This document shows positions 40,912 through 63,541 of a stretch of DNA of 64,000 nucleotides, piece after piece. The notes below the pieces were generated by a model. That model saw only the letters and a list, made by a program, of their open reading frames with translations, did not search any database and was not told the origin of the DNA. Within the stretch, counting starts at the first letter, position 1. Each line of letters opens with the position of its first letter. The stretch comes from a virus (lineage: Duplodnaviria; Heunggongvirae; Uroviricota; Caudoviricetes). The stretch is taken from the IMG/VR virus record IMGVR_UViG_3300015214_000024, positions 137,787 through 201,786 of that record. One strand, 5' to 3'. The position numbers and the translations under genes are program-made.

Positions 40912-40965
40912 TATTATATCTAGCCACATTATAAATATTTGAGTATCATTTAAAGGAGTGAAAAG

Positions 40966-41020
40966 ATGACACGAACTACTAGCTGACCATCCAGCAAATC
41001 ACTAGGATTGTTGGATGGTC
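40966..41020 (+). promoter_or_regulatory. Thr-rich leader peptide MTRTTS (40966..40986) and overlapping hairpin upstream of ThrRS
   Basis: AAGGAG SD, ATG ACA CGA ACT ACT AGC TGA; GACCATCCAGCAAATC/GATTGTTGGATGGTC stem. Confidence 0.7.
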
Positions 41021-41058
41021 GTATTCAACATTTTCTAACGTGATTTAATAGGAGATCA

Positions 41059-42243
41059 GTGATGTTATACGATCATCGTAAAATTGGCCGAGAAATGGGC
41101 CTATTTCATATTCAAGAAGACGCCGCAGGCTCAGTATTTTGGCACCCACGCGGCTATGCACTTTACCGTAATATTGAAAATTATATTCGAATGAAACAAC
41201 TTCAGTATGGCTATGACGAAGTCAAAAGTCCACAACTGTATGATGTTTCACTTTGGAAAAAGAGTGGTCATTGGGATCACTTCAAGGAAAATATGTATTC
41301 TATTGAGGATTCAAATTTCTCCTTGAAACCTATGAATTGTCCAGGCCACATTCAAATCTTCAATTCTGACCTAATTTCTTATAAACAACTACCTTTGCGG
41401 CTGGCTGAATTTGGTTGTTGCCATCGTAATGAGCCATCTGGTGCATTACACGGTATAATGCGTGTCCGACAGTTTGTCCAAGATGACGCTCATATTTTTT
41501 GTATGGAAAACCAGATTCAATCAGAAGCATTAGCATTTTGTAAAATGCTTCAGGAAGTTTATGATGATTTTGGATTTAAAAATATCAAAGTAGCCTTAAG
41601 TCTGAGACCGGATGACCGTGCTGGCAATGACGCTGATTGGGATTTGGCCGAACAGGCATTAGAGGAAGCCATCAAGCAGGCCGGGTTTGAATACATTCTC
41701 CAGCCAGGTGAAGGTGCATTTTACGGTCCTAAATTGGAATTTGCACTAATCGACCAAGGCGGCCGTGAATGGCAATGTGGTACCATACAATTAGACTTTG
41801 TTTTGGCTGGACGACTTGGGGCAAAATATGTTGCTCAAGATGGTAGCCAAAAAGTGCCAGTTATTTTACACCGTGCAGTATTGGGTTCATTAGAACGATT
41901 TATTGGTATTCTTTTAGAGCATTATGGTAAGGATTTACCAGTATGGCTATTAAAAGACCAATTTGCTGTTTTGCCAATCAAGCCATCAGTCAATGATTAC
42001 GCTTGCAATGTGAAAGAAGCTGTGCTACAATTTGGCTTTAATGCAGAATTGGATTCTGATGATATTTCTCTTGGTGACAAGATTAAAAAATATTATCATA
42101 TTCCCAATCTCATTATTATCGGAGACCGTGAGGCTAAAAACGGCCAAGTTGTTTGGCGAAAACTTGATGGTTCACAGGAAGTTATTGATTTACATATTTT
42201 TTATGAAAAAGTGAAAAATGTGAAAAATCCGTTGAAAAAGTAA
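41059..42243 (+). CDS. thrS: Threonyl-tRNA synthetase, minimal (lacks N-terminal TGS/editing domains)
   Basis: Starts at DHRKIG; KPMNCPGH, HRNE.SG.L.G..RVR.F.QDDAH, FYGPK, WQCGT.QLDF, HRA..GS.ERF. Confidence 0.95.
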   Translation: MMLYDHRKIGREMGLFHIQEDAAGSVFWHPRGYALYRNIENYIRMKQLQYGYDEVKSPQLYDVSLWKKSGHWDHFKENMYSIEDSNFSLKPMNCPGHIQIFNSDLISYKQLPLRLAEFGCCHRNEPSGALHGIMRVRQFVQDDAHIFCMENQIQSEALAFCKMLQEVYDDFGFKNIKVALSLRPDDRAGNDADWDLAEQALEEAIKQAGFEYILQPGEGAFYGPKLEFALIDQGGREWQCGTIQLDFVLAGRLGAKYVAQDGSQKVPVILHRAVLGSLERFIGILLEHYGKDLPVWLLKDQFAVLPIKPSVNDYACNVKEAVLQFGFNAELDSDDISLGDKIKKYYHIPNLIIIGDREAKNGQVVWRKLDGSQEVIDLHIFYEKVKNVKNPLKK

Positions 42244-42272
42244 TTGACACGGACTAAATAGTGTAGTAAGTT
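42244..42272 (+). promoter_or_regulatory. Sigma70-like promoter of tRNA cluster 1
   Basis: TTGACA-17 nt-TAAGTT; spacer CGGACTAAATA is shared with the promoter at 53335. Confidence 0.7.
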
Positions 42273-42316
42273 TAGAACATAAGTTGAAACAAATTTTAAG
42301 GAAAGCAGTTACCATT

Positions 42317-42382
42317 ATGTCACATTCAGTTTATCATTATGAATATGAGCGTGAATATCTCCGTCCAGGGGAGAGTTGGTAA
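42317..42382 (+). CDS. Attenuator leader peptide MSHSVYHYEYEREYLRPGESW (His/Tyr/Glu-rich)
   Basis: AGGAAAG upstream; 10 of 21 residues are H/Y/E; followed by a terminator and His/Tyr/Glu tRNAs. Confidence 0.8.
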   Translation: MSHSVYHYEYEREYLRPGESW

Positions 42383-42415
42383 CGAGTATTTAAAATACTT
42401 CGACTGAACCGATTC

Positions 42416-42445
42416 AACCCTGGGACTGAAATCCCAGGGTTTTTT
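42416..42445 (+). terminator. Attenuator terminator of cluster 1
   Basis: AACCCTGGGA-ctgaaa-TCCCAGGGTT-TTTT; TCCAGGG (42364) in the leader can sequester the 5' arm. Confidence 0.88.
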
Positions 42446-42455
42446 CGTTTTTGTG

Positions 42456-42531
42456 GTGGCATAACGCAAACAGGTGAGCGGACTGACTGTGAATCAGTTG
42501 TTAGAGGGTTCAAGTCCCTTGTGTCACACCA
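42456..42531 (+). tRNA. tRNA-His(GTG), A73 type
   Basis: ACTGA-CTGTGAA-TCAGT; acceptor GTGGCAT/GTGTCAC-A-CCA. Confidence 0.9.
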
Positions 42532-42550
42532 AACATTATTGGAGTGAAAA

Positions 42551-42739
42551 ATGGAAGTATTTGTAATCAAAACTGAAGAAGTTGAACGAACGCTTAAATT
42601 TTTTACCCAATTGGGTTTAAATTTTGTTCAAGAACAACACGGTAATGGACCAATCCATTACGCTTGTGAACAAAATGGAGCAGTTTTTGAAATTTACCCT
42701 AAGGGTAAAACTGAAGGTTTTAAATTTATAGATATGTAA
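42551..42739 (+). CDS. Small VOC/glyoxalase-like protein
   Basis: FF..LGL.F..EQHG.GP.HYA, FEIYP. Confidence 0.7.
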   Translation: MEVFVIKTEEVERTLKFFTQLGLNFVQEQHGNGPIHYACEQNGAVFEIYPKGKTEGFKFIDM

Positions 42740-42744
42740 TTTTT

Positions 42745-42831
42745 GGGTGGTAAAAGTCAGTGGTTCTGATAGGCAGTCTGTAAAACTGCGCCTTTTCGGA
42801 GGGAGTAGTTCGATTCTACTACCACCCACCA
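42745..42831 (+). tRNA. tRNA-Tyr(GTA)
   Basis: GCAGT-CTGTAAA-ACTGC, long variable arm, GGGTGGT/ACCACCC-A-CCA. Confidence 0.9.
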
Positions 42832-42840
42832 AGAAATTAT

Positions 42841-42916
42841 GGTGACTGAAGTGTTGACGGATACACGCTTGGTTGTGAACCAGGAGTAACGGGCTCGATA
42901 CCCGTTGGTCACCCCA
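42841..42916 (+). tRNA. tRNA-His(GTG), G-1:C73 type
   Basis: CTTGG-TTGTGAA-CCAGG; G-GTGACTG/TGGTCAC-C-CCA. Confidence 0.88.
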
Positions 42917-42922
42917 AATTAT

Positions 42923-42998
42923 GCAACGGTCTTCTAATGGTTAGGAACCCTGACTTTCAATCAGGCCAATGCGAGTTCAAGTCTCGTCCGTTGCACCA
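42923..42998 (+). tRNA. tRNA-Glu(TTC)
   Basis: CCTGA-CTTTCAA-TCAGG; GCAACGG/CCGTTGC-A-CCA. Confidence 0.9.
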
Positions 42999-43157
42999 AA
43001 GCTTGTGCTTTGTGACCCTTCATACGCCCGAGGGTCAGAAAAATATCAGGATGCTGATACGGTATTATATACTAAAGGCATTGGGACCGCGCAGTACGCA
43101 CTACGGCTGAGTCATAAGGACTGAATAGTAGATGCTCGGTAGCGGCGAGCAAAATAT

Positions 43158-43229
43158 GGCGCGGAACGCTAGAGGCGGGCGGCTTGCCTTTCAAGCAAGT
43201 GTAAGCGGGTTCGATACCCGTCCGCGCTA
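43158..43229 (+). tRNA. tRNA-Glu(TTC), no encoded CCA
   Basis: CTTGC-CTTTCAA-GCAAG; GGCGCGG/CCGCGCT. Confidence 0.8.
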
Positions 43230-43234
43230 CTACT

Positions 43235-43307
43235 GGCCCGGTAGTTTAGAGGTTAGAACGCGAGGTTTTCACCCTCGAGAGCGGGGTTCGATGTCCCCGT
43301 CGGGTCA
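43235..43307 (+). tRNA. tRNA-Glu(TTC), 8-nt T loop
   Basis: CGAGG-TTTTCAC-CCTCG; GGCCCGG/TCGGGTC. Confidence 0.8.
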
Positions 43308-43322
43308 CAAAAAGGAGTTTAT

Positions 43323-43550
43323 ATGAGTAACACTTTTAAGATTGAACGTGCTAGAAAACTTTACAAAAGCGATAAACCGAGTAAAGATATGAAGTTGACA
43401 GGCACTGGGGAAACTTGTATGAATGGTGATCCATTGTTTGTTAATAATGGTGGCCAACGTTGGGGCAACCAACGTAAAATGAGGGCAAAGATGAAAGTTG
43501 ATGCTCGTAAGTCAGAGAGAATGAAGAACAAGAAGATTGATTTGGAATAA
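43323..43550 (+). CDS. Small basic hypothetical protein
   Basis: AAGGAG SD. Confidence 0.6.
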   Translation: MSNTFKIERARKLYKSDKPSKDMKLTGTGETCMNGDPLFVNNGGQRWGNQRKMRAKMKVDARKSERMKNKKIDLE

Positions 43551-43558
43551 AAGAATAT

Positions 43559-43647
43559 GGGTGAGCTGCTCAGATGGCGGATGGGCACCGGACTGTAAAT
43601 CCGGCACATAAGAAACATAGTAGGTTCGAATCCTACCTCACCCACCA
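43559..43647 (+). tRNA. tRNA-Tyr(GTA)
   Basis: CCGGA-CTGTAAA-TCCGG; GGGTGAG/CTCACCC-A-CCA. Confidence 0.9.
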
Positions 43648-43665
43648 AAATGATGGAGATAATGC

Positions 43666-44055
43666 TTGTTTAAAAATTCTAGAAAACAAGGTGATGCTGG
43701 CTTGGGTCAAGCAATAGCTTGGTTGACTATGAAAGGATATGCTATTAGTATTCCACTAACTGACAATCAAGATTATGATCTAGTTGCTGAAATTGACGGT
43801 GATTTAAAGAAAATTCAAGTCAAGACCGGAACTAGAATTAGTGATAATGGTATTGGGATGATCTATCTTAATGTTGATGGGGGAAATCGAAGCGGAACCG
43901 GTAAATTTAAAAATTTAGACGACCAACATTGGGATTATTTATTTGGTTATCATTTGGATACAAAAGAGATTATTTTTATACCTAAAAATGAAATATGCTC
44001 AAAAAGCCAAATCAATTTAGGTGAAAAATATAGAGACTGGATTTCAAAAATCTAG
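43666..44055 (+). CDS. PD-(D/E)xK homing-type endonuclease
   Basis: QGDAG, ISIPL.D..DYDLV, KIQVKT. Confidence 0.8.
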   Translation: MFKNSRKQGDAGLGQAIAWLTMKGYAISIPLTDNQDYDLVAEIDGDLKKIQVKTGTRISDNGIGMIYLNVDGGNRSGTGKFKNLDDQHWDYLFGYHLDTKEIIFIPKNEICSKSQINLGEKYRDWISKI

Positions 44056-44276
44056 TCTTGAAACTAACTTGTAGAGGATCTGGTGAAAGGTATTTTATAC
44101 CGAAGGGACCAGCTATTCTACCGCGAGATGCGAGATCCGACCCCAAGTAAGTGGGAGTCAAACCGGGTAAGATGGCGTAATGGAAACATAAGCGTAGACT
44201 TACTTTGGGGAGATTGGAGGTTGTGCTACCGGCTAAGTTATGTTTGAAACAAGTTCTTACTAAGCTTGTTTCGTTT

Positions 44277-44361
44277 GGGTGATATGACACAGTGGAGGGT
44301 CACCAGTCTGTAAAACTGGCGCCGAAAGGCACGGTAGGTTCGAACCCTACATCACCCACCA
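44277..44361 (+). tRNA. tRNA-Tyr(GTA)
   Basis: CCAGT-CTGTAAA-ACTGG; GGGTGAT/ATCACCC-A-CCA. Confidence 0.9.
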
Positions 44362-44378
44362 AATTTGAAAGGCTATGA

Positions 44379-44624
44379 ATGATTTTTACTATTGGTAAAA
44401 AAGAATGGTATGATCAATGGATAGTTGAACAAGGCCCGCTTTTTAAAAAACGTGGCAAAGATGATGAATACAGTGGTGGGTCTGCATTTTTATGCATTGG
44501 TAAAGCAATAAAAAATTGTCCGCCTGGATATGCAATTTACATACTTGACACTAATATTGATAATTTGTATGAAGTAAATGGTAATTTGCATATTATAGAA
44601 AGTTGTAGGATTTGTTTAATATGA
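44379..44624 (+). CDS. Hypothetical protein (paralog of 45990..46241)
   Basis: TIG...WY..WI.EQG..FKK.G....Y.GGSA..HI.ESCRI shared. Confidence 0.65.
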   Translation: MIFTIGKKEWYDQWIVEQGPLFKKRGKDDEYSGGSAFLCIGKAIKNCPPGYAIYILDTNIDNLYEVNGNLHIIESCRICLI

Positions 44625-44812
44625 AAGCAAGTGTTTGTCAAATGTATGTCAATCCAGACGGTGTTATTCTCCGACGTTGTCCAGATATGGGCGAGCATCA
44701 GCAGATGGTTGACCAATGGATTAAAGATGCTAAGATAGAAGGTGAATATTTTGACGACGTTTTCTTCTTTAGTAATAAAGATGATTACAATACTTTAAAG
44801 TTTTTCAAATGA
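44621..44812 (+). CDS. Hypothetical protein
   Basis: Overlaps both neighbours. Confidence 0.5.
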   Translation: MKASVCQMYVNPDGVILRRCPDMGEHQQMVDQWIKDAKIEGEYFDDVFFFSNKDDYNTLKFFK

Positions 44813-45018
44813 TTTGTCCTTATACTTTTGAAGCTTTTAACTTTAAAATAATGGTTAATACTAGGCAAATAATGAAAGATACAGCCTTCTTTGAAGGACT
44901 TGATAGTCAGAATATTGATTTTCGGTTAGGGTGGAATAGTTGGCCACCAGATATGGCAGTTGGTCCTATTTGGTTTAAGACTGAAGAAGACTTAAACATT
45001 GCTAAATTATTATTATAA
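44809..45018 (+). CDS. Hypothetical protein
   Basis: ATGA overlap; C-terminal WFKT.ED motif also seen in neighbouring small ORFs. Confidence 0.5.
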   Translation: MICPYTFEAFNFKIMVNTRQIMKDTAFFEGLDSQNIDFRLGWNSWPPDMAVGPIWFKTEEDLNIAKLLL

Positions 45019-45022
45019 TAAT

Positions 45023-45099
45023 GGCCCCAGCGTCTGACACGGATAGGACACTAGCCTCTCAAGCTGGAGAACCGGGTTCGAGCCCCGGTGGGGCTACCA
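45023..45099 (+). tRNA. tRNA-Glu(CTC)
   Basis: CTAGC-CTCTCAA-GCTGG; GGCCCCA/TGGGGCT-A-CCA. Confidence 0.88.
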
Positions 45100-45387: not shown

Positions 45388-45472
45388 GTCAAAACTACTA
45401 AAGACGAATGGTAGAGTCAGCCCGCTCTTATACGGGATAATAGCTGGTTCGATTCCAGTTAGTAGTTTTGGC
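45388..45472 (+). ncRNA. tRNA-like RNA with extended acceptor stem and 8-nt anticodon loop
   Basis: GTCAAAACTACTA/TAGTAGTTTTGGC; CCCG-CTCTTATA-CGGG; GCTGG-TTCGATT-CCAGT. Confidence 0.6.
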
Positions 45473-45480: not shown

Positions 45481-45581
45481 GGGCCAATAGTGTATGACGA
45501 AACGCTAATTAATTAGTAAAGTAGGCGGTGAGCACGGGCTTCATACAGGGTCTAGGATGGGTTCGATCCCCATTTGGTCCA
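45481..45581 (+). ncRNA. tRNA-like RNA with D-loop insertion, anticodon unclear
   Basis: GGGCCAA/TTGGTCC; ATGGG-TTCGATC-CCCAT. Confidence 0.55.
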
Positions 45582-45619
45582 CACGTTGACAAACTTAATC
45601 AAATTCGCTATGTTGCATC

Positions 45620-45717
45620 TATGAGCCAGGCGGCGGGAGTAGAACAGTGGTACTTCACCTCCATCCCAGGAGGAGATTGTAGGTTCGATTCCTACCTTGC
45701 CGCCCGTCCTGGCCATA
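45620..45717 (+). ncRNA. tRNA-like RNA with 6-nt anticodon loop and paired flanks
   Basis: CGGCGGG/CTTGCCG; CCTCC-ATCCCA-GGAGG; GTAGG-TTCGATT-CCTAC; flanks GCCAGG/CCTGGC. Confidence 0.6.
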
Positions 45718-48763: not shown

Positions 48764-49385
48764 ATGCTACGTGGTACACGTTTGATTGAGGGCAAGGAAG
48801 CTCAAACATTTAATGAAGTAATTGATACCTTTCGGAGGTTAGTTCATCCAGTCTGATTTCGAAGAAATCATTGTTCCCAGTATTTGGGAACAAGAAACCT
48901 TTTTGGCCAAAACTGGCCCAGAACTATCTAAACAAATGTGGACCTTTAAGGATAAAGGTGATCGAGACGTTTGTTTGATTCCTGAAGTTACCGGTATTTT
49001 TCAAGAAACTTGGCGTGAAAAATGGTCCAAGTCAATGAAATTCCGTAAAGTGTTTTACGTACAACGCTGTTATAGGTATGAAAGGCCGCAAGCTGGCCGT
49101 TATCGTGAATTTACGCAATTGGGTATTGAAATCCTTGGTAACTATGATAATGGTGATCAAGAGGCTCAAGATTTGTTGAAAGCTGGTCTTGACGCAATTG
49201 GTGTAGAGTATGAATTTGATTCAACCGCGACACGTGGTCTCGGATACTACACTGAGCTTGGTTTTGAAGCTCGTTGCGAATCACTTGGTGCGCAAAAGCA
49301 AGTAGCAGGCGGCGGCCGTTATGCTGAAGGTGTTGGATGGGCTATTGGTGTTGACCGACTGGTTTTAGCTAAAATGAATAAATGA
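48764..49385 (+). CDS. hisS: Minimal histidyl-tRNA synthetase catalytic domain, needs a +1 frameshift near 48842-48856
   Basis: GGAGG SD + MLRGTR in frame 0 (TGA at 48854); +1 frame FEEIIVP, LIPEVT, YRYERPQAGRYREFTQLG.E, RGLGYYT, GGGRY, GWAIGVDRL. Confidence 0.85.
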
Positions 49386-54439: not shown

Positions 54440-54513
54440 GCTCCTGTAGCCCAAATGGAAGAGGCGGCAGTTTCAAACACTGTACAGTGTGAGTTCGAGT
54501 CTCACCAGGAGCA
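54440..54513 (+). tRNA. tRNA-Leu(CAA), short variable region
   Basis: GCAGT-TTCAAAC-ACTGT; GCTCCTG/CAGGAGC-A. Confidence 0.82.
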
Positions 54514-54517
54514 CAAG

Positions 54518-54615
54518 ATGATGGTTTAGTCAGGGGTTAGCTCAATTGGTAGAGCACCTGGTCTGGAGCCAGGGGGTTGGGAGTTCAAGTCTCCTGCTCC
54601 TGACTAAACCATCAT
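54518..54615 (+). ncRNA. tRNA-Pro(TGG)-like RNA with a 13-bp acceptor extension, C33, no CCA
   Basis: ATGATGGTTTAGT/ACTAAACCATCAT; CCTGG-TCTGGAG-CCAGG. Confidence 0.7.
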
Positions 54616-54623
54616 ACTTAAAT

Positions 54624-54699
54624 GCGGTTGTGGGCAAAAGGTAAAGTCGGCAAACTTAAAATTTGTGTCATATTGTGGGTTCGAGTCCCACCTACCGCA
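54624..54699 (+). tRNA. tRNA-Leu(TAA), short variable region
   Basis: GCAAA-CTTAAAA-TTTGT; GTGGG-TTCGAGT-CCCAC. Confidence 0.8.
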
Positions 54700-54952
54700 C
54701 AAAAAGATGAAAAAGGCGTTGACAACGTTTTAACATCAAGTTAATATGCGAAACAAGAAACGTACTTAACAGTAAGTTTTTCGTTTAGTGGTATTTCTTT
54801 AATAGCCCTAATAGGCTGGGATTACGGAACGCTATGTTGAAGGACATAACTCGGAAATCCCCGTGTGAGGCGGTCATCCAAAGTGGTAGTCGAATTATGG
54901 TTGGAAGAAACGGAATGTAAGGACCACCGAAATGGTGCAAGGCCATTATAAC

Positions 54953-55027
54953 CGGGGATTAGCTCAGCCGGGTCAGAGCGCCTGCTTTGGGAGCAGGAAG
55001 TCGTAGGTTCGAATCCTACATTCCCGA
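54953..55027 (+). tRNA. tRNA-Pro(TGG)
   Basis: CCTGC-TTTGGGA-GCAGG; CGGGGAT/ATTCCCG-A. Confidence 0.9.
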
Positions 55028-55184
55028 CAATATTAAGCAATGCTGTCATTAAGTAGTAATATTTTTTGATAGGAAAGGCAGCCATTATGGCGGTAAGCTG
55101 GATATATCCATTAACTCAATCATTTGGGTGTGGAATAGCCCGAGCAGAAGTTGGGATCAGGTCCAACCGTTGTTTAATATTAAT

Positions 55185-55268
55185 GCCCTAGTGGTGAAAT
55201 TGGTAGACACACTAGATTTAGGTTCTAGCGCCAAAAGCGTGGGGGTTCGAGTCCCTCCTAGGGCACCA
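55185..55268 (+). tRNA. tRNA-Leu(TAG)
   Basis: CTAGA-TTTAGGT-TCTAG, long variable arm, CCA. Confidence 0.93.
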
Positions 55269-55272
55269 AAAG

Positions 55273-55935
55273 ATGGAGACGAGAATGGAAATTCTTAAAT
55301 TGAAGAATCCTTATCTAAATGGATTTAGTGATGAAAACGATCCAGTTGCTCTGCAATATTTAGATAAGCTGAAAGCGATTAAGGAAGCATTATCATCAGG
55401 CCGCCTCTATTGCCAATATATAGATGGCGATAGAAAAGGATCAATTGCAAAATTGATCCCAGATCCTGCCTATTCTCATATTGAGGATCGCGCGCCATCT
55501 ATTCGATATTCAAGTTCGCACTTTCAAAAAGGTCCTTGGTATCGATTTGAGAATGATATGTTTTTTATGATTGCGACTTGGAATGGCCGCAAGAATAAAG
55601 TTAAAGAAACTTGGTCATATTATAGTCAATTTGAATTTATTATTGGCGATGATATAGAAACTGTATGGCAAAAGTTTGATGCACAAACGGCTAAAGAAGA
55701 AGTACTCAAGAACCCCAATCAAAAGGATATTGATGGTAATGTTCTCAATGTCGGTGATGCAGTAATGTTTGTTAATGCACGTTATGGCTCACGAATGGTA
55801 CTTGAACGTGGCAGAATTAAAGAATTTAAAGTAGTGGTTGATTCGAAGAAAACTTCTATTTCAACTGTTATTGAGAATAGCGAAGGTGCTTTAAGTACAT
55901 TATCATATCCAGAAGATATGGTTTGTAAAATTTAA
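55273..55935 (+). CDS. Hypothetical phage protein
   Basis: 220-aa ORF between tRNAs; DIDGNVLNVGD.V motif. Confidence 0.65.
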   Translation: METRMEILKLKNPYLNGFSDENDPVALQYLDKLKAIKEALSSGRLYCQYIDGDRKGSIAKLIPDPAYSHIEDRAPSIRYSSSHFQKGPWYRFENDMFFMIATWNGRKNKVKETWSYYSQFEFIIGDDIETVWQKFDAQTAKEEVLKNPNQKDIDGNVLNVGDAVMFVNARYGSRMVLERGRIKEFKVVVDSKKTSISTVIENSEGALSTLSYPEDMVCKI

Positions 55936-55938
55936 AAT

Positions 55939-56024
55939 GCGGTTATGGTGGAATGGCAGACACACTATCTTGAGGGGGTAGCGAGAGAAATCTCATAAGG
56001 GTTCAAGTCCCTTTAACCGCACCA
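55939..56024 (+). tRNA. tRNA-Leu(GAG)
   Basis: CTATC-TTGAGGG-GGTAG, long variable arm, CCA. Confidence 0.92.
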
Positions 56025-56255
56025 AAAAGAACGTTGCGAGTAGCTATCGCATAGTTAGGCTGATATCCTGATGAAGAATCCAGTTAGCCCTGGAAAAACT
56101 ATCCCTGACTTGGAAAGCTGGTTGACATAACATATAATGTCACGTATTGGGATTTATACGATAAATTGAGCCGTGGAGGTGAGCGTTGATCTAGCTGATC
56201 TAAAGTAGGCTAGGGAGTGATCGGACCCGTGAAGCGGACAATTAAATCCCAACAT

Positions 56256-56332
56256 CTGGAAGTAGCGCAGCCTGGTAGCGTACCTCATTTGGAGTGAGGG
56301 GGTCGGAGGTTCAAATCCTCTCTTCCAGACCA
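56256..56332 (+). tRNA. tRNA-Pro(TGG)
   Basis: CCTCA-TTTGGAG-TGAGG; CTGGAAG/CTTCCAG-A-CCA. Confidence 0.92.
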
Positions 56333-56340
56333 ATTATTGT

Positions 56341-56455
56341 GCGGATGTAGCTTAATGGGTTGGTCGAGCTAGATAAGACCAAACTTAGTGGCCACTAAGT
56401 AAAGCGGCAGGTAGTTAACCTGGAGAAGGTGGTTCGATTCCATCCATCCGAGCCA
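56341..56455 (+). tRNA. tRNA-Asn(GTT)-like RNA with a ~40-nt two-hairpin D-loop insertion
   Basis: CGGATG/CATCCG, GCTT...AAGC D stem, CAGG-TAGTTAA-CCTG, ends GCCA. Confidence 0.7.
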
Positions 56456-56495
56456 AAAAGAAATTGAACATATTTTGTTTGTGTGGGTAAAAGCA

Positions 56496-56523
56496 TTGAC
56501 AACGTTAGTATTGCCTCTATAAT
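56496..56523 (+). promoter_or_regulatory. Consensus sigma70-like promoter inside cluster 2
   Basis: TTGACA-16 nt-TATAAT, embedded in a hairpin ACAACGT/ACGTTGT. Confidence 0.55.
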
Positions 56524-56590
56524 CTAGACGTTGTGTGGGTTCAAGTCCCTGAGGAGGCTTCAGCTTTTTAACAGCAAATATGTCAATCAT

Positions 56591-56667
56591 TCCCCTGGGG
56601 TCCTATCGGTAGGGACGCCTGACTGTTAATCAGGTTGCTGTAGGTTCGAATCCTACCAGGGGAGCCA
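56591..56667 (+). tRNA. tRNA-Asn(GTT)
   Basis: CCTGA-CTGTTAA-TCAGG; TCCCCTG/CAGGGGA-G-CCA. Confidence 0.93.
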
Positions 56668-56896
56668 ATTAGAAATTCAAACTAATGATTAATTAGGAAA
56701 CTTGCCAATGGGTCGACACAGACGCAAGGATAATTTTTAAAAATTAGGGAGATAGGAGAAGTCCTGGGCGGGCGCCAACCTTTATGGCTAGCCGGCGCGA
56801 ATATAGGGTTCAATTCCTTATAGTGGAAAACAAAGTCGTGTTTTTCATCCTTGGGCAGGGTAGGTTCAATTCCTCGCTTCTCTGAACGCAACATAT

Positions 56897-56973
56897 TCCC
56901 AATGGGCCCTATTGGCAGGGGCACGACGCTGTTAACGTCGACGCTGTAGGTTCGAATCCTACATTGGGAGCCA
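56897..56973 (+). tRNA. tRNA-Asn(GTT)
   Basis: CGACG-CTGTTAA-CGTCG; TCCCAAT/ATTGGGA-G-CCA. Confidence 0.93.
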
Positions 56974-56987
56974 ATTTGAGGTATGAT

Positions 56988-57410
56988 ATGAATTACAAAG
57001 GACATAAAGATAAAATTTATATTTGTGAAAATTGTTTTTCTGAAATAGCCTTCAAAGGCTATTCAAACAAGCACCGATTTTGTGATATGAAATGTGCTGG
57101 TGAATTTAAAGTTAAGGAAACTAAAGATAAAAATTTAAAATTATTCCTTCAAGGTAAATTAACGCGCAGGGATAGAATTTATGAAATATTAGTTGAACGC
57201 GATGGTAATTGCTGTTCTGTTTGTAAAATTACCGAATGGAATGGTAAAGAAATTCGTTTATGGGTTGACCATATTGACGGAAATGCTACCAATAATTCAC
57301 CGAATAATTTTAGACTGATTTGTCCAAATTGTGATTCACAAAGTGAAACTTTTGGAGCCAAGAATCGAGGCAATGGAAGAAAATCAAAAGGATTACCGCA
57401 ATATGGGTAA
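56988..57410 (+). CDS. HNH endonuclease
   Basis: CSVC..W, VDHIDGNATNN...NFRLICPNCDSQ. Confidence 0.88.
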   Translation: MNYKGHKDKIYICENCFSEIAFKGYSNKHRFCDMKCAGEFKVKETKDKNLKLFLQGKLTRRDRIYEILVERDGNCCSVCKITEWNGKEIRLWVDHIDGNATNNSPNNFRLICPNCDSQSETFGAKNRGNGRKSKGLPQYG

Positions 57411-57413
57411 TAT

Positions 57414-57488
57414 TCCGGAGTAACTCAATGGTAGAGTAACTGGCTGTTAACCAGTAAGTTGGGGGTTCGAGTCCCTCCTCCGGAGCCA
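57414..57488 (+). tRNA. tRNA-Asn(GTT)
   Basis: ACTGG-CTGTTAA-CCAGT; TCCGGAG/CTCCGGA-G-CCA. Confidence 0.93.
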
Positions 57489-57610
57489 TTAAAGTTTAGG
57501 CAAAAAGAGAAGGCGGTTAAATTCCGTCTAGGCGAGAGATCAAGGGCCCATTTATGGAGGTCTTGGCGAGAGAATATAGCATAATGTTAATGTGCTTTTT
57601 GTCTTACCAT

Positions 57611-57882
57611 TTTGGTATAGTGTAAAGGAAAAGTTCAGTAAGTTGCTGAAAAGTTTCTAATAAGCTTATCGGAGAATAGTGAAAGTATTAACAGTAGCAA
57701 ACGCAAAGGCTATAAAAACCGTGAGCTTGGGAAGGGCAAGACAGGCTGTTAATATGGAAACTGGGATTTGATAAGTGGATGATTAACTTAGTAAGTAGGT
57801 GAAAGGCTTAGTACGTGGTAGCACGCCGGCATAGCACTTGCGTTTTGGAGCCGGAAGTGAGGTTCGAGCCCTCTTACCAGAG
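57611..57882 (+). ncRNA. tRNA-Gln-like scaffold with a ~190-nt D-loop insertion and expanded anticodon loop
   Basis: TTTGGTA-TAGTGTAA ... GGTAGCAC-G-CCGGC-(19 nt ending TTTTGGA)-GCCGG, GAGG-TTCGAGC-CCTC, TACCAGA-G. Confidence 0.55.
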
Positions 57883-57892
57883 CTAATAGAAA

Positions 57893-58071
57893 TTATCCAT
57901 CGTCTAAACGTGGTACTAACGATAGGGAGTGATCACCTGACAATAGGTCGATTGAAAATTAGTATTGAAATCTACCAATCACGTGTAAGGTAGAAAGTAA
58001 AGAAATGTTTCTTTCAGTTAGGACGCCGCCCGTGGAGGGCGGAAATATCAGCACACTGATTGGATAAACCA
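57893..58071 (+). ncRNA. tRNA-like RNA with a ~110-nt D-loop insertion, loop CGTGGAG, reduced T loop, CCA end
   Basis: TTATCCA/TGGATAA-A-CCA; GTCT...GGAC; CCGCC-CGTGGAG-GGCGG. Confidence 0.55.
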
Positions 58072-58185
58072 ATGTGTAGCTTAATTGTTGAGGATTTATT
58101 TTCAACAATTAGTTCGTAAGAATGTTCACCGTATGGTGTAGGACGTTCGGGATATAATTGCGGGGAGGGGCATTATATCATTCAT

Positions 58186-58261
58186 CTAGATGTGGGAAAG
58201 TTGGTAATCCGCCTGTTTCGGGAACAGGAGACCGCCGGTTCGAGCCCGGCCCTCTAGACCA
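58186..58261 (+). tRNA. tRNA-Pro(CGG)
   Basis: CCTGT-TTCGGGA-ACAGG; GCCGG-TTCGAGC-CCGGC; CCA. Confidence 0.88.
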
Positions 58262-58325
58262 ATTCTTGACATAGCATTGAACTAATGCTATTAGATTTCT
58301 ATTAACAATTTAGCTCAGAAAGGAT

Positions 58326-59591
58326 ATGGCGATGTATGATCAGTATGTATGCGTAATGTTCCCGTATCCTAGTGGCGCTGGCCTGCATTTGGGTCATTAT
58401 TACAACTATGCTGTAATTGACTCATATGCTAGGTGGCAGCGTTTTAAAGGTCAGACGGTTTTTCAACCTTTTGGTTATGATGCTTTTGGCTTGCCTGCAG
58501 AAAACTATGCTCGCCAAATTGGCGGTGATCCTAGAACAATAACTAATCAAAATATTCAAAATTTCCGTAAACAAATGCGAAATATGAATACTTTGTATGA
58601 CGAACAGTTGGTTACTTGTGAAACTGATTACGTTAAGTGGACCCAATGGATCTTTAATGCTTTGAAAGATCGTGGATTAGCATACAAAGCTTGGGGTGAA
58701 GTAAATTGGTGTGAACAGTGCGGGACCGTGTTGGCTAATGAACAAGCGCAAAATGGCATTTGTGAACGCCACGGAACTCCTGTTGAAAAACGTCAAATGA
58801 ATCAGTGGTATTTCAAGATTACTGATTATACTGATCGATTGATTAAGAATTTGGACTGGATTGATTATCCGGAAGGGACTAAGAAGCAACAGCGCAAATG
58901 GTTGGAGGATCAGCAAGATTGGTGTGTCAGTCGTCAGCGTTCTTGGGGCTGTCCTATACCAATTGAAGGTGAAACTGACACCTTGGACACTTTTGTTGAC
59001 TCTTCATTTTATTTCTTGCGCTATTTGACTAAAAGTGAAGATGAGTTTTTGCCAGCTGATCAATACAAGCAAGTCGATCTGTATGTTGGTGGCCCAGAAC
59101 ACGCTTGTATGCATTTGATATATGCTCGTTTTATTCATATGGTTTTGTTTGATATGGGAATTGTTCCTGAAGAAGAGCCATTTAAGAAAGTTATTCATCA
59201 GGGTATGATTACCAAGGATGGGAACAAGATGAGCAAAAGTAAAGGTAATGCCGTTAGTCCTGATGACTATGATCCTGACGAATTGAGAATGTATTTGATG
59301 TTCTTGGGGCCATATTTTGAAGGTGGGGATTGGAGTGACCAGCATATTGTTGGTGTTCGCCGCTTCTTCAATAGGATGAAAACTTGGTTGGGAGAAGCTG
59401 GCACTGAAAATATTGACACTTCTCAGTTGGAAAATCAAATTGATCATTATGTTTCTACTTTCAAATTTAATAAAGTAGTTTCAAGTTTTATGGAATTTAT
59501 GAACAAAAATAAATCCAAAAAAGTTGATAATGAAACTCGAAATAAAATTGTCAGAATGTTGACTAATTTTGCCCCAGGGTTTCGAATTTAA
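58326..59591 (+). CDS. leuS: Minimal leucyl-tRNA synthetase (no CP1 editing or C-terminal domain)
   Basis: MFPYPSG.GLHLGH, GYDAFGLPAEN, TVLANEQ, DWCVSRQR.WG.PIP, DTLDTFVDSS.YF, GG.EHA..HL.YARF, KMSKSKGN. Confidence 0.93.
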   Translation: MAMYDQYVCVMFPYPSGAGLHLGHYYNYAVIDSYARWQRFKGQTVFQPFGYDAFGLPAENYARQIGGDPRTITNQNIQNFRKQMRNMNTLYDEQLVTCETDYVKWTQWIFNALKDRGLAYKAWGEVNWCEQCGTVLANEQAQNGICERHGTPVEKRQMNQWYFKITDYTDRLIKNLDWIDYPEGTKKQQRKWLEDQQDWCVSRQRSWGCPIPIEGETDTLDTFVDSSFYFLRYLTKSEDEFLPADQYKQVDLYVGGPEHACMHLIYARFIHMVLFDMGIVPEEEPFKKVIHQGMITKDGNKMSKSKGNAVSPDDYDPDELRMYLMFLGPYFEGGDWSDQHIVGVRRFFNRMKTWLGEAGTENIDTSQLENQIDHYVSTFKFNKVVSSFMEFMNKNKSKKVDNETRNKIVRMLTNFAPGFRI

Positions 59592-59770
59592 GTAGTTGAC
59601 AGTGAATAGATTGTTTGCTACTATGAATACATAAGCAGTTAAGCAGTTTTGGTCCACGGTGGTTCCAGCAAATGTTGGAGGGTAGATGGTTCGAATCCAT
59701 TTAAGAAAACCTGGGTTAGGTTTAAACCAAAAGAGCGTTCAAATCGCTCCGCCAAAAACCGTTTAATTAT

Positions 59771-59789
59771 TATGCCCACTTGGCGGAAT
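59771..59789 (+). repeat. 19-bp direct repeat of the 5' end of tRNA-Leu (second copy 60706..60724)
   Basis: TATGCCCACTTGGCGGAAT occurs twice, flanking an ORF and the HNH gene. Confidence 0.85.
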
Positions 59790-59795
59790 TTGAAT

Positions 59796-60035
59796 ATGAT
59801 AAACCTTGAAAATATTGTTGAATCTCTCAAAAGGCAATATCCTGAATATGATTATGAGATATTGAATAATAAGATTGGAATCTGGGATCCTCCTGGAAAC
59901 CATTATAAAGGAAGATACCATATACAAATTGCAGAATGTGAAATAACTGAAGACAAAAATTATGATCATAATTTTTGGATAGATTTTTTAGAAAAATGTA
60001 TCTTTATTCATAGAATGAATAAGTATAATTTTTAA
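59796..60035 (+). CDS. Hypothetical protein
   Basis: MINLEN start chosen because the upstream part of the ORF overlaps RNA-like sequence. Confidence 0.5.
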   Translation: MINLENIVESLKRQYPEYDYEILNNKIGIWDPPGNHYKGRYHIQIAECEITEDKNYDHNFWIDFLEKCIFIHRMNKYNF

Positions 60036-60078
60036 TTAAAATTTGCGTCAACTATAAATAAAGCTAAAAGGTAACTTT

Positions 60079-60705
60079 ATGCTTTGTGATTATGGTTGCG
60101 AACAGGAATCAAATTTTGTTCTTAAAAATGGTAAAAATTGTTGCGCAAAGAGTCAAAATTCATGTCCTGCAATAAGGGCTAAGACTGGGGCAACTGTTAA
60201 GCATCAATTTAAATCTGGCAGTAGAAAACGTCAACCATATGTTTATGCTGATTTGCCTGATGAAACAAAAGAGAGAATGAAATGGAACAAAGGAAAAGAA
60301 ATTGTTCCAAACGAAATTGTGTTTGCTGAAAATAGCAAATATGATAATGATGTGGTTAAAAAAAGAATTTTACAAAACAATCTTTTAGATTATAAATGTG
60401 CCGAATGTGAGTTGACAGAATGGCAAGGCAAAAGTATAGTGTTGGAGTTAGAACACTGCAACGGCGTTCGAAACGATCATAGGATTGAAAACTTAAAGTT
60501 TTTGTGTCCAAATTGCCACTCACAAACGGAAACGTTTAGAGGAAGAAACAAAAACACTGGAAAAGTTATTGTTACTGATGAAGAGTTGTTGACAGCGTTA
60601 AAGTCGACTGCTAATATAAGACAAGCTTTACAGAGTGTAGGACTTGCTGCTAAAGGCGGAAATTATGCTCGAGTTAAAGCTTTAAAATTAAAGTTTAATG
60701 TTTAA
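60079..60705 (+). CDS. HNH homing endonuclease
   Basis: CAEC..W, LELEHCNG..ND.R.ENL..LCPNCHSQT; TATAAATA upstream. Confidence 0.88.
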   Translation: MLCDYGCEQESNFVLKNGKNCCAKSQNSCPAIRAKTGATVKHQFKSGSRKRQPYVYADLPDETKERMKWNKGKEIVPNEIVFAENSKYDNDVVKKRILQNNLLDYKCAECELTEWQGKSIVLELEHCNGVRNDHRIENLKFLCPNCHSQTETFRGRNKNTGKVIVTDEELLTALKSTANIRQALQSVGLAAKGGNYARVKALKLKFNV

Positions 60706-60708
60706 TAT

Positions 60709-60864
60709 GCCCACTTGGCGGAATGGTAGACGCCAGGGACTTGTCGGAAAGAAACCTTAGGGTTTAGAACGCCACTTAGTATGGCGACGGTGCGAATCCG
60801 GAATCCGAAAGCTAAAATCCCTTGCCCTTTGGGCGTACCGGTTCGAGTCCGGTAGTGGGTACCA
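60709..60864 (+). tRNA. tRNA-Leu(TAA) interrupted by a 71-nt structured insert in the anticodon loop
   Basis: GCCCACT/AGTGGGT-A-CCA; AGGGA-CT[60742..60812]TAAAA-TCCCT; long variable arm. Confidence 0.82.
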
Positions 60865-61021
60865 AATGAGAAGTCGTATGGTTGGTTTCATACTACTTGA
60901 ATGATATAAATTGGGTTAACACAGTTTATATCAAACAAGCTGTCCCTGATAAGCCATATGTGGGAAGATAAGCTGCCCATTTGACTATGTAGCTTGAGTT
61001 ATTGTAAACGGAGATATAGTA

Positions 61022-61213
61022 ATGACTGCTGCTACTTTTGCTGGACTACTTGTTATTATGTATGTCCTTTTTGTAATTGGTAAAGTTCTTGAAAACTACT
61101 TGCCTCAGAAGCAGCCAAGTTATGTTAGTGGCGCTGGCGCACCGGAACCTTCAGCAGAGGCTAAGGAAGCTGCCCGTCGTTATAGAGAGCAGAACCTAAA
61201 TCCGTTTTATTGA
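61022..61213 (+). CDS. Small membrane protein
   Basis: GGAG SD, N-terminal TM helix. Confidence 0.6.
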   Translation: MTAATFAGLLVIMYVLFVIGKVLENYLPQKQPSYVSGAGAPEPSAEAKEAARRYREQNLNPFY

Positions 61214-61214
61214 T

Positions 61215-61379
61215 ATGAAAAATCAAGAACCAACGGATGAACAAATAAATGATTACTTGGTTGGTAATCCGCATGAAAGTTGGTTTACAGCCAGAGAGAA
61301 ATTAAGAGATAAAGCTTATTCAGAAGATCACAAGAAACCGGAAGGTATGACTTGGGGTGAATATTGGAAAAGCTTTTAA
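61215..61379 (+). CDS. Small hypothetical protein
   Basis: MKNQEPTDEQINDYL...WGEYWKSF* read directly from the sequence. Confidence 0.5.
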   Translation: MKNQEPTDEQINDYLVGNPHESWFTAREKLRDKAYSEDHKKPEGMTWGEYWKSF

Positions 61380-61495
61380 AAGTTCGCACTGCCCGATATG
61401 AGTAACACTGAAAAGTGAAAAACTCGGAATTACTTAGCCCAAACACTTTGGGATGCAAAGACGGTAAGGAAAAAGGAAGTGACGGTGCGAAACTT

Positions 61496-61582
61496 GCGGG
61501 TATGGCGGAATTGGTAGACGCGACTGACTCAAAATCAGTTTCCCGAAAGGGAGTGGGGGTTCGAGTCCCTCTACCCGCACCA
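61496..61582 (+). tRNA. tRNA-Leu(CAA)
   Basis: ACTGA-CTCAAAA-TCAGT, long variable arm, CCA. Confidence 0.93.
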
Positions 61583-61762
61583 AACTGGAAGGATTTAAAT
61601 CTTAGCAGTTTGACCTATTTGAATGCTATGTTAGATTAAACTGGCCTAAAGCTGCCAATCCTAACGGATCGTGGCATAGCAAACAAGTGGGACTGCTAAA
61701 CGTACTAAGCGGGATTGGAACATGTGCGTGACTTTGCTAAGTTTCAGAGTAAATTTAGCTAT

Positions 61763-61800
61763 TCTTCAGTGGTGGAACTGGTAAACACATTAGACTAAAT
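61763..61800 (+). pseudogene. Orphan 5' half of a Leu-type tRNA, truncated by the endonuclease gene
   Basis: TCTTCAG-TG-GTGGAACTGGTAAACAC-A-TTAGA-CT; no matching 3' half seen. Confidence 0.55.
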
Positions 61801-61805
61801 ACATT

Positions 61806-62384
61806 ATGAAGAATAATTGGAAAGAAATTCAGGAATATTACGACAAAGGTTTTAGTATTCGAGAATTGGTTGCACATTTTAAAATTTCGACTAAGTCAAT
61901 ACATCTCGCTAAAAAGCGTGGCGAGTTTGTGACCAGATCAAAATCAGAGAGTGCTTTATTAGTAAAGAAAAAATTTGGCCAGAAGGTATTGTCAAAATCC
62001 CATAAAGATAATATATCTAATGGTATGAGGGCGGCCCATAAAAATGGTAATGCTTGGAATATTGGCCAAAGTAGATGGAATAATGAACCAAGTTGGCCAG
62101 AACAATTTTTTATGAATGTGGTCGCAAATGAATTTGACGACAAGAATTATGAATATGAAAAACCATTTCATAAATTTAGTTTAGATTTTGTTTGGGAGCA
62201 TAAAAAGAAAGTAATAGAAATTGATGGTGAACAGCACGATCGCTGCTTTGAGCAACGTAGACGTGATGAGGAAAAAGATTCGTTACTCCATCAATATGGA
62301 TATGAAATTTTACGTATCAGGTGGAAAGATATGTTTAATGATCCAAAAGTTTATATTAAACTTGCAAAAGATTTTATAAACTAA
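61806..62384 (+). CDS. DUF559/Vsr-like homing endonuclease with NUMOD3-like segment
   Basis: PSWPE, FSLDF, IEIDGEQH, RD..KD..L...G..ILRI.W. Confidence 0.85.
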   Translation: MKNNWKEIQEYYDKGFSIRELVAHFKISTKSIHLAKKRGEFVTRSKSESALLVKKKFGQKVLSKSHKDNISNGMRAAHKNGNAWNIGQSRWNNEPSWPEQFFMNVVANEFDDKNYEYEKPFHKFSLDFVWEHKKKVIEIDGEQHDRCFEQRRRDEEKDSLLHQYGYEILRIRWKDMFNDPKVYIKLAKDFIN

Positions 62385-62387
62385 TAT

Positions 62388-62459
62388 TCCGATGTAGCTC
62401 AGCGGTAGAGTCGGTGACTGTTAATCACTTTGTCGGAGGTTCGAATCCTTCCATCGGAG
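62388..62459 (+). tRNA. tRNA-Asn(GTT)
   Basis: GGTGA-CTGTTAA-TCACT; TCCGATG/CATCGGA-G. Confidence 0.92.
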
Positions 62460-62475
62460 CAAAAAGGAAAATGGT

Positions 62476-62733
62476 ATGACTTGGATGATTTATCCAGATA
62501 ATATTCCAACAGAATCAGGTTATTATATGACTTTATATTATAATCCTGAACGTAATGAAGAGCTTTACAAAGCTCTTTGGTTTAGTGTTGATATTGGTAA
62601 ATGGACTGGACCTTGGCCTTGGAATTATGAATATGGGAAAGAATTTACGACCACTGATGGTCATAAAGCTCGTCCTATAATTTGGAAGGGTATTGATGTA
62701 AAGAAATATCAACCATTATCAAAAGCTCGATAA
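62476..62733 (+). CDS. Hypothetical protein
   Basis: AAGGA SD; W....P.ESGYY motif. Confidence 0.6.
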   Translation: MTWMIYPDNIPTESGYYMTLYYNPERNEELYKALWFSVDIGKWTGPWPWNYEYGKEFTTTDGHKARPIIWKGIDVKKYQPLSKAR

Positions 62734-62930
62734 TATACCCAATGTGTGTATATTGAAGGATAAAAGAAAAGATATCGGCACCTAGTTGGTCGCCGGCGTA
62801 CTATGTGAGCACAAAACCAAATAGGTATCAGATATTTGGCACAAAAGCGTCACACATAAGCGGTTTGGGAGGAGGTCCGCGGTCTTTTCAATTTTTCCAT
62901 AAATATCTAAAAGATTTGTGGAGATCAAAA

Positions 62931-63380
62931 ATGAAATTATTTGAAATAGATCAAATGAAACTTGCTGCTAAAATGCAAGCCATTATTGATGATCCGAACA
63001 CTAATGAAAATGTTAGAGCAGTAGCTAAATCAAAACTTCAACAGCTTATTGATAGTAAAGCTGGCCAAAACGTAACTTATGCTTATACTGATTTTGGTGC
63101 TACTCAAAAGATTAAAGATTACAATAAGGTTTTTATGGTAATTGATCGAACCGTAATAACTTTTAGAGATATGGTTGATTCCATTAGAAAAGTTAATACA
63201 ACTTTTGTTGATTTTGACAATGGGACAACTGATAGTAAATCACCATCAATTATACTTAAAGTCAAAGACGATGGCAATGATGTGAGTGATATAATAAAAA
63301 ATTCTATTAAATCATCTAAATTTACAGTGTCAACAGTTGACAAAATAGATGATAATATGTATAAAGCATATATACAGTGA
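62931..63380 (+). CDS. Hypothetical late protein
   Basis: ATAAATA motif, GGAG SD, MKLFE start. Confidence 0.6.
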   Translation: MKLFEIDQMKLAAKMQAIIDDPNTNENVRAVAKSKLQQLIDSKAGQNVTYAYTDFGATQKIKDYNKVFMVIDRTVITFRDMVDSIRKVNTTFVDFDNGTTDSKSPSIILKVKDDGNDVSDIIKNSIKSSKFTVSTVDKIDDNMYKAYIQ

Positions 63381-63464
63381 ATAGAAAATGTGGATTGAAC
63401 AATTTATTGCGTCCGTTTTAAAGTTAAGTGAACTTGAAGCGAAGATCATTTCTTATCCATAAAT

Positions 63465-63541
63465 CGGGGATTGGCCTAGTCTGGTAAGGCGCTTGCTTTG
63501 GGTGCAAGAGATCGCGAGTTCGAATCCCGCATCCCCGACCA
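63465..63541 (+). tRNA. tRNA-Pro(TGG)
   Basis: CTTGC-TTTGGGT-GCAAG; CGGGGAT/ATCCCCG-A-CCA. Confidence 0.93.

Follow-up and report, generated by a model that had tools for sequence, protein, structure and literature searches.

Leader-peptide attenuators govern a number of bacterial amino-acid operons, among them those behind trpL, hisL, leuL and pheL and the multivalent thrL and ilvL, as well as pheST of Escherichia coli. T-boxes act on synthetase genes through antitermination and need no ribosome, as they bind the uncharged tRNA themselves; ermC and cat carry translational attenuators that respond to drugs, and control of thrS in E. coli comes not from a leader but from its enzyme binding its own mRNA. 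Enzymes of amino-acid biosynthesis also show a cognate bias, in that proteins needed in a shortage avoid the amino acid concerned. In phages, the question of why tRNA genes are carried has been open for more than 50 years (PMC10264068). Here, we report the analysis of a DNA stretch of 64,000 nucleotides (the window; positions 137787-201786 of virus record IMGVR_UViG_3300015214_000024), in which tRNA genes sorted by amino acid lie behind short leader open reading frames (ORFs) and intrinsic terminators. The record is the genome of an uncultured jumbo phage (455,147 bp, rated complete, 39% G+C), labelled G000 where the whole genome is meant. A preliminary description, made from the sequence alone, had proposed that ribosome-based sensors of cognate aminoacyl-tRNA shortage switch on the tRNA and synthetase genes. 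This proposal is supported by additional leaders, by co-variation of leaders and blocks, by the position of the switch boundary and by a conserved frameshift, and on comparative and modelling grounds the phage very probably gauges the speed at which codon families are read and switches on matching translation parts when reading is slow.

Two such units, together with genes for threonyl-, histidyl- and leucyl-tRNA synthetases (ThrRS, HisRS and LeuRS; others are abbreviated likewise), lie on the plus strand of the window. Unit 1 opens with a putative promoter, recognized by consensus match (42244-42272, TTGACA-17-TAAGTT), that encloses a TAAATA motif found throughout the phage. A Shine-Dalgarno (SD) sequence, AGGAAAG at 42299, is followed by leader 1 (42317-42382), with 21 codons and its His, Tyr and Glu sensor codons at positions 3-14; these amino acids make up 10 of its 20 residues (p = 3e-5 against the phage proteome). 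The distal leader is predicted to pair with the 5' arm of intrinsic terminator 1 (42418-42445, fold z -3.5 against shuffles) as antiterminator 1 (42360-42429, -28.3 kcal/mol, z -4.2). Block 1 (42456-45099) then encodes two tRNA-His(GTG), three tRNA-Tyr(GTA), three tRNA-Glu(TTC) and one tRNA-Glu(CTC), with no other tRNA. Unit 2 repeats this layout with promoter 2 (53335-53372, TTGACT-17-TATAAA plus TAAATA motifs, again a consensus match), AGGAAAG at 53392, leader 2 (53409-53495, 28 codons, Leu, Asn and Pro sensor codons at 2-20, 15 of 27 residues, p = 1.2e-5), antiterminator 2 (53470-53538, predicted -21.5 kcal/mol, z -2.6) and terminator 2 (53527-53557, z -3.5). Block 2 (53579-63541) holds Leu (TAG twice, CAA twice, TAA, GAG), Asn (GTT, four genes) and Pro (TGG four times, CGG) tRNAs, and the Leu codons of leader 2 (TTA, CTA, CTC and TTG) correspond to the four Leu anticodons of the block.

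The sorting of tRNAs by amino acid and the common layout (promoter, AGGAAAG, enriched leader, terminator and antiterminator), both put forward in the preliminary description, are thus seen at both blocks. The sole anticodon exception is an AAT loop in the first gene of block 2, a long-armed tRNA-like gene at 53579-53680. That gene also moves the start of the block, which had been placed at 54244, to 53579; the end at 63541 stands. The gene at 54244 itself, called Ile(AAT) by ARAGORN, was reassigned to Leu(TAG) from its stem-loop.

Both promoters have the form TTGAC-17-TAnnnT, and the shared spacer pointed out earlier, CGGACTAAATA, does occur in both, at 42250 and 53342. The complete 11-mer is confined to these two promoters, but [AC]TAAATA lies 5' of 66 of 418 genes, as against none of 418 control stretches within genes, and the CGG part of CGGACTAAATA varies in the two further units of the genome. 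The TAAATA core is therefore a general phage promoter motif and not a regulon box, and a role of CGGACTAAATA as the box of a dedicated regulator was ruled out. A sigma70 region-2 gene was searched for in the genome and none was found.

The two further units came from a terminator scan of the whole genome that was made blind to tRNA positions. Thirty strong terminators were found, four of them directly 5' of a tRNA block, and all four are preceded by an SD-led leader that ends 29-34 nucleotides before the hairpin. One of the additional leaders, for which the preliminary description had advised a search elsewhere in the genome, precedes five tRNA-Ser genes (G000 300358, minus strand) and has 15 codons, seven of them consecutive Ser codons. 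The other (G000 209726) has 34 codons, and 31 of its 33 residues belong to the 12 amino acids of a large mixed block; it is free of His, Tyr, Leu, Asn, Pro, Ser and Cys. The four leaders jointly account for 19 amino acids. The match is in each case confined to the leader's own block (p 1e-5 to 3e-5), and the correct pairing is the best of 24. Of the 416 SD-led short ORFs of the genome, no other reaches the score of leader 1, leader 2 or the mixed leader, and two others reach that of the Ser leader.

The geometry of the switch was modelled by masking the RNA under the ribosome codon by codon and asking whether the 5' arm of the terminator is paired before its 3' arm is made. With the ribosome on the sensor codons, the 5' arm is predicted to be pre-paired with probabilities of 0.94, 1.0, 0.8 and 0.6 in the four units. 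It is freed once the ribosome passes Tyr14 in leader 1, Pro20 in leader 2, and Ser11 and Trp26/Ala27 in the other two, which are the last sensor codons. In the folding model, antiterminator and terminator thus exclude each other: a ribosome standing on sensor codons leaves the antiterminator free, and one that has reached the stop covers it. Sensor codons in the three narrow leaders occupy 31 of 42 positions before the switch point as against 1 of 19 after it (Fisher 4e-7); in the mixed leader both Glu codons are located after it. Eighteen units of other phages show the same distribution, with 228 of 329 positions before and 21 of 118 after.

Comparison with other phages shows the leaders changing with their blocks. 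A second genome, G001, has four units with a different partition, namely Ser/Tyr/Cys/His; Arg/Leu/Lys/Trp; Ile/Val/Gln/Met/Pro/Asn/Ala/Thr/Phe; and Asp/Gly/Glu, the last without a U-tract. For 17 units gathered automatically from other genomes, the leader-block score was 56.9, and none of 20,000 label permutations reached it (maximum 44.2), as would be expected if leader composition tracks the block beyond this phage; the result holds after the Ser/Tyr/Cys/His family is merged. The match is clear in 11 of the 17. Among close relatives, six contigs were compared: thrS is followed by the His/Tyr/Glu unit in three of them and by the Ser unit in the other three, each with its own leader, and leader 1 is kept in L114 and L117. 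The regions read in G002 and in Sinorhizobium phage Phosso have unsorted tRNA arrays and no such leader; sorting and leaders therefore go together. Two further arrangements were recorded, a tandem pair of terminators 3' of the Ser/Tyr/Cys/His leader of G001 (L003:8416-8480) and an ORF with a Gln run and a strong terminator 5' of a Gln/Leu/Pro/Ser/His block, in which only Gln is matched (L051:7950-8160).

A second kind of sensor is suggested by hisS. Its frame-0 part (48764-48856) starts at 48764, has 30 codons and ends at a stop at 48854, and the catalytic body continues in the +1 frame (48846-49385). The junction reads GGAGG-TTA-GTT-CAT-C, with the SD-like GGAGG at 48834-48838, the P-site codon GTT at 48842-48844 and the His codon at 48845-48847; a +1-frame TAG at 48840 shuts that frame upstream and confines the shift site. 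The joined product of 206 amino acids, presumably an active enzyme, has the core motifs of the class IIa catalytic domain and lacks the insertion and anticodon-binding domains. The frameshift at a His codon that had been proposed for this gene is borne out by its homologues. Of 54 distinct ones, 44 are split, every one at CTT or GTT followed by CAT or CAC ([CG]TT-CA[TC]; A site CAT in 31 and CAC in 13, P site CTT in 25 and GTT in 19; in L005, for example, GGG TAT CTT CAT A), and a sequencing error or pseudogene was ruled out by this common break point. Of 28 homologues, 27 have an SD-like element three bases before the P-site codon, as in prfB. The ten unsplit homologues have no His at the site and align in register with the shifted product. 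The break could instead be a fixed throttle on expression that senses no histidyl-tRNA; ten homologues do without it and an SD-driven P-site slip has a basal rate. Such a throttle would require neither a His codon in 44 of 44 cases, with both synonyms used, nor a His-free product, and we consider it improbable. We therefore retain the frameshift as a candidate histidyl-tRNA sensor. An RNA-library contig of a related strain spans 48768-49039 without a gap. The closest cultured match of the phage HisRS is that of Phosso (66%), whose hisS (L001:4045-4686) retains the frameshift; its GenBank start is the +1-frame ATG at 4096, so that the conserved N-terminus at 4045 and the frameshift were overlooked there.

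A third kind precedes thrS. A micro-leader of 6 codons with its own SD (40966-40986) has three Thr among the five codons after Met and is kept in six of six close relatives, with three or four Thr codons. The putative switch region of thrS (40983-41058) holds a hairpin at 40985-41021 without a U-tract. The Thr-rich leader of the preliminary description thus stands, and its reading as a terminator-type attenuator was ruled out by the missing U-tract. The strand over the leader stop is able to pair with the thrS SD, and a long alternative hairpin would free that SD; the anti-SD pairing, conserved in six sequences, shows matching letter changes between relatives. From these predicted folds, translational attenuation is a good working explanation that we think likely to be correct. 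ThrRS itself (41062-42243; TIGR00418, 470.8 bits) lacks the N-terminal TGS and editing domains. A comparable 16-codon ORF with four Ile and three Lys codons precedes ileS-lysS (G000 297634-297584, minus strand; L122) and pairs with the ileS SD; it is present in L119 and absent in L116.

The composition of the synthetases provides independent evidence, drawn from sequence, of selection for their synthesis while their own charged tRNA is scarce. ThrRS has one Thr in 393 residues (26 expected), IleRS one Ile in 851 (60 expected) and HisRS no His in 206. SerRS has 8 Ser (31 expected), GluRS 11 Glu (25) and the Gly-like protein 7 Gly (17), and the depletion is mild in LeuRS (24 Leu, 33 expected) and in LysRS. 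Across 326 ORFs, no other single residue is depleted as strongly as Ile in IleRS and Thr in ThrRS. Each of the five nearest ThrRS relatives likewise contains one Thr, as against 9-21 (median 12) over the corresponding stretch in 72 full-length homologues, and the split HisRS homologues contain 2 His in 6,938 residues. Synthesis of an enzyme that hardly uses its own amino acid can continue when that amino acid is short.

The proposed course of events is as follows. RNA polymerase would start at the sigma70-type promoter and a ribosome would load on the leader. With ample charged tRNA, the ribosome would reach the leader end and cover the antiterminator strand, the terminator would form and transcription would stop before the first tRNA. 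When a tRNA of the group is absent or uncharged, the ribosome would wait in the sensor block, the distal leader would pair with the 5' arm of the terminator and the block would be transcribed, and its new tRNAs would close the feedback loop. In HisRS, a slow His codon in the A site and the internal SD pulling the P-site GUU would favour, at a rate presumably set by histidyl-tRNA, a +1 slip of the ribosome to the frame of the catalytic body, a part played by UGA in prfB. On the micro-leader of ThrRS, and probably of IleRS/LysRS, a held ribosome would cover the anti-SD strand and keep the start open, and synthetases low in their own amino acid could be made in that very shortage. Layout, composition match, co-variation, conservation and predicted folds are the observations from which we infer that leaders are translated and terminators read through.

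Several observations weigh against this account. Promoter-like sites with a consensus match lie within block 2 (54719, 56496, 59596 and 61610), before hisS (48698 and 48738) and inside the mixed block. The leaders may thus be bypassed, with distal tRNAs, LeuRS and HisRS not gated, and these sites suggest that firm gating applies only to the proximal tRNAs. Two Cys, two Arg(TCT) and one Val tRNA lie outside any leader unit. At equilibrium, the terminator wins in leader 1 and the Ser leader irrespective of the ribosome, which makes equilibrium folding uninformative as a test for these two and means that their switch must be co-transcriptional, or kinetic. Kinetic rather than equilibrium switching is usual among attenuators. 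The switch point also rests on an assumed footprint (12 nucleotides from the first A-site base). Six of the 17 automatically gathered units have no match and resemble the ends of upstream genes, and the related phages have common ancestry, so that their counts are not independent. At thrS, the start region becomes only about 2-5 kcal/mol cheaper to open when the anti-SD strand is masked, and a longer footprint would be needed. Most of the more distant ThrRS genes in phages lack a Thr leader; in one case the preceding ORF ends in a Thr run, and another such gene lies within a block behind a Thr/Ile/Arg/Met/Asn leader and a terminator. Four of 28 HisRS homologues, that of Phosso included, have an ATG in the open +1 frame, a potential start.

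Taken to their extreme, the internal promoter-like sites, together with the leader 1 of one relative (L115), interrupted by a stop at codon 4, could mean that the leaders are chance or untranslated ORFs, that the terminators end upstream transcripts or yield to a phage antiterminator, and that the tRNAs are constitutive. The composition match, the fixed spacing, the switch boundary and the leaders that change with the block across phages all speak against chance, and we regard this explanation as very remote. Sensing by the leaders accordingly remains our reading of the units, with one restriction. The preliminary description held that only the matching tRNAs and synthetase are induced. This was overstated, as sensing is by groups of 1 to 12 amino acids, and it is weakened further by the internal promoter-like sites, by the distance of thrS from the Thr tRNAs and by Tyr, Asn and Pro, for which the phage has tRNAs yet no TyrRS, AsnRS or ProRS was found.

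What sets off the switches is a separate matter. An extra tRNA or synthetase cannot fix a lack of free amino acid; the most likely trigger is therefore loss or failed charging of host tRNAs during infection. The same switches may also serve in every infection as routine feedback that matches supply to demand (heavy translation late in infection, a general decay of host tRNAs, hosts poor in nutrients), with no specific attack involved. The coverage of 19 amino acids and a grouping that varies between phages fit such bookkeeping of the whole pool, and in Mimivirus tRNAs and synthetases are expressed more strongly when the host is starved (PMC4450173). RNA-library contigs that bridge leader 2, terminator 2 and the first tRNA point the same way; they are assembled contigs of two straw metatranscriptome samples, covering most bins, in which DNA is not excluded and strand, ends and levels are not given, so that nothing is concluded from them on regulation. 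That ThrRS, IleRS and HisRS have lost their cognate residue almost entirely rather suggests selection under severe failure of a single amino acid. We give routine feedback nearly an even chance; it conflicts with a defence trigger only, not with the mechanism.

The switches could also act chiefly to counter host defence, being induced when anticodon nucleases, tRNA-modifying toxins or synthetase inhibitors of the host are at work. Infected hosts run down their tRNAs, a loss that phage tRNAs can make good (PMC10264068; the available parts of PMC11464382 and PMC11555353), an added tRNA or synthetase is useful only where tRNA or charging limits, and the window carries ADP-ribosylglycohydrolase-like, SpoT-like HD and NadV genes; no defence system has been matched to any block, however, and 19 amino acids exceed the known nuclease targets. 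We put this forward tentatively, as something rather short of an even bet. In the same guarded sense, the near-complete three-tier readout of charged tRNA, by attenuators that gate tRNA blocks, a sense-codon frameshift of the prfB type and micro-leaders of synthetases that themselves contain hardly any of their own amino acid, might amount to an inducible repair kit against tRNA-targeting defences. As triggers, defence and routine homeostasis are equally likely.

About 70 tRNAs and eight synthetase-like genes are encoded genome-wide, those for Thr, His and Leu inside the window and those for Ser, Ile, class I Lys, a Glu-type and a short Gly-like enzyme outside it. No TyrRS/TrpRS, AspRS/AsnRS/class II LysRS, AlaRS, PheRS, CysRS or ArgRS gene was found in the genome, and no leader was seen 5' of the SerRS, GluRS, GlyRS-like and LeuRS genes. 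The short LeuRS (58326-59591, 421 amino acids; TIGR00396 396.5 bits, below the cut-off) lies 4.8 kb inside block 2. Endonuclease-like ORFs are scattered among the tRNAs of that block, which also holds a Leu(TAA)-like gene (60709-60864) whose anticodon loop is longer by about 70 bases; a copy of the gene's 5' end lies 940 bases upstream (59772-59790), and between the two is an HNH-like ORF (60079-60705) that is missing in a related strain. Long-armed Leu-like tRNA bodies with Ile-type anticodons were also seen at L007:5846-5934 and L013:4008-4100 (TAT in both). Two of the three such genes sit among Leu tRNAs, and they could insert Leu at Ile codons. Structured non-coding stretches without an Rfam match occur in block 1 (43000-43160 and 44060-44270) and block 2 (54780-54950, 55990-56250 and 57490-58180), in each case between tRNAs, and some of them carry the deepest RNA-library contigs (57611-57831). 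The tRNA-His genes (42456-42531 and 42842-42916) both have G at -1, one with C73 and the other with A73, which may be relevant to a HisRS without an anticodon domain.

Three odd tRNA-like genes follow block 1 (45393-45468, 45481-45582 and 45631-45705), one with a possible TCA loop, and a tRNA with an amber anticodon (CTA) lies at 27726-27800 of the window, as also found in G002 and Phosso. TAG is the stop codon in only 17 of 325 long ORFs. A short RF1-like release-factor gene (G000 303030-302377, minus strand; L122:16378-17031; also L114:7043, L116:2281 and L119:7276) has an in-frame TGA at codon 32 in four of four genomes, with the PrfA match spanning the stop. From its sequence, it looks like a read-through sensor of release-factor activity, and according to PMC5009743 (section 29) bacterial RF2 and RF1 genes were not known to be arranged in frame in this way. 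Close to the tRNA blocks lie the NadV-like (29858-31309), ADP-ribosylglycohydrolase-like (51354-52280) and SpoT-like HD-domain (52281-52913) genes, possible tools of counter-defence or of the stringent response.

A literature search in which subscription journals were little covered returned no description of attenuated phage tRNA arrays, of a HisRS frameshift or of phage Phosso. If the present reading is true, these units are the first attenuation control of tRNA genes in the literature searched, accompanied by a +1 frameshift that senses an amino acid in nature and by synthetases that avoid their cognate residue almost completely. A sensor before each block records the condition under which its tRNAs were selected, which makes the question of why phages carry them directly testable. 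The leaders predict tRNA identity and are usable as biosensors of single charged-tRNA pools.

With the attenuators of amino-acid operons, the units have in common the promoter, the ORF of sensor codons, the antiterminator overlapping an intrinsic terminator and default termination without translation, and with thrL and ilvL the multivalent sensing. They differ in that the controlled genes are tRNA genes in a phage, the first genes after the terminators all being tRNAs, in that one leader covers up to 12 amino acids and the four jointly 19, and in that feedback acts on the tRNA side and not on synthesis. The Rfam leader families (His, Trp, Leu and Thr) gave no match at E up to 0.5. T-boxes are alike in sensing uncharged tRNA and in antitermination and differ in binding the tRNA directly without a ribosome; the T-box riboswitch (RF00230) likewise had no match in the Rfam search. 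The thrS micro-leader would resemble ermC and cat, in which a ribosome stalled on a micro-leader frees the downstream SD, except that the proposed signal is a shortage of Thr-tRNA and not a drug, and it differs from E. coli thrS in using a leader in place of enzyme-mRNA binding. Phage counter-defence tRNAs are similar in that viral tRNAs replace depleted host tRNAs (PMC10264068; the available parts of PMC11464382 and PMC11555353), and mimivirus in that viral translation genes are able to respond to the host state (PMC4450173); a codon-specific sensor is not described for either in these sources, as far as the available passages go. According to the available passages of PMC5009743, prfB (RF2) shares with hisS a frame-0 ORF of about 26-28 codons, an internal SD, a CUU or GUU P-site codon, an obligatory +1 shift and a slow A-site codon as the sensor. 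That source covers 'hungry codon' shifts, with no HisRS case in the passages searched. Unlike prfB, hisS has His and not UGA in the A site in 44 of 44 cases, leaves the base after the sensor codon free where prfB has UGA-C, and yields a synthetase and not RF2. Finally, as in the cognate bias of biosynthetic enzymes, the proteins needed in a shortage avoid the scarce amino acid; here, the avoidance concerns phage synthetases and is near-complete, with 1 in 851, 1 in 393 and 0 in 206 residues.

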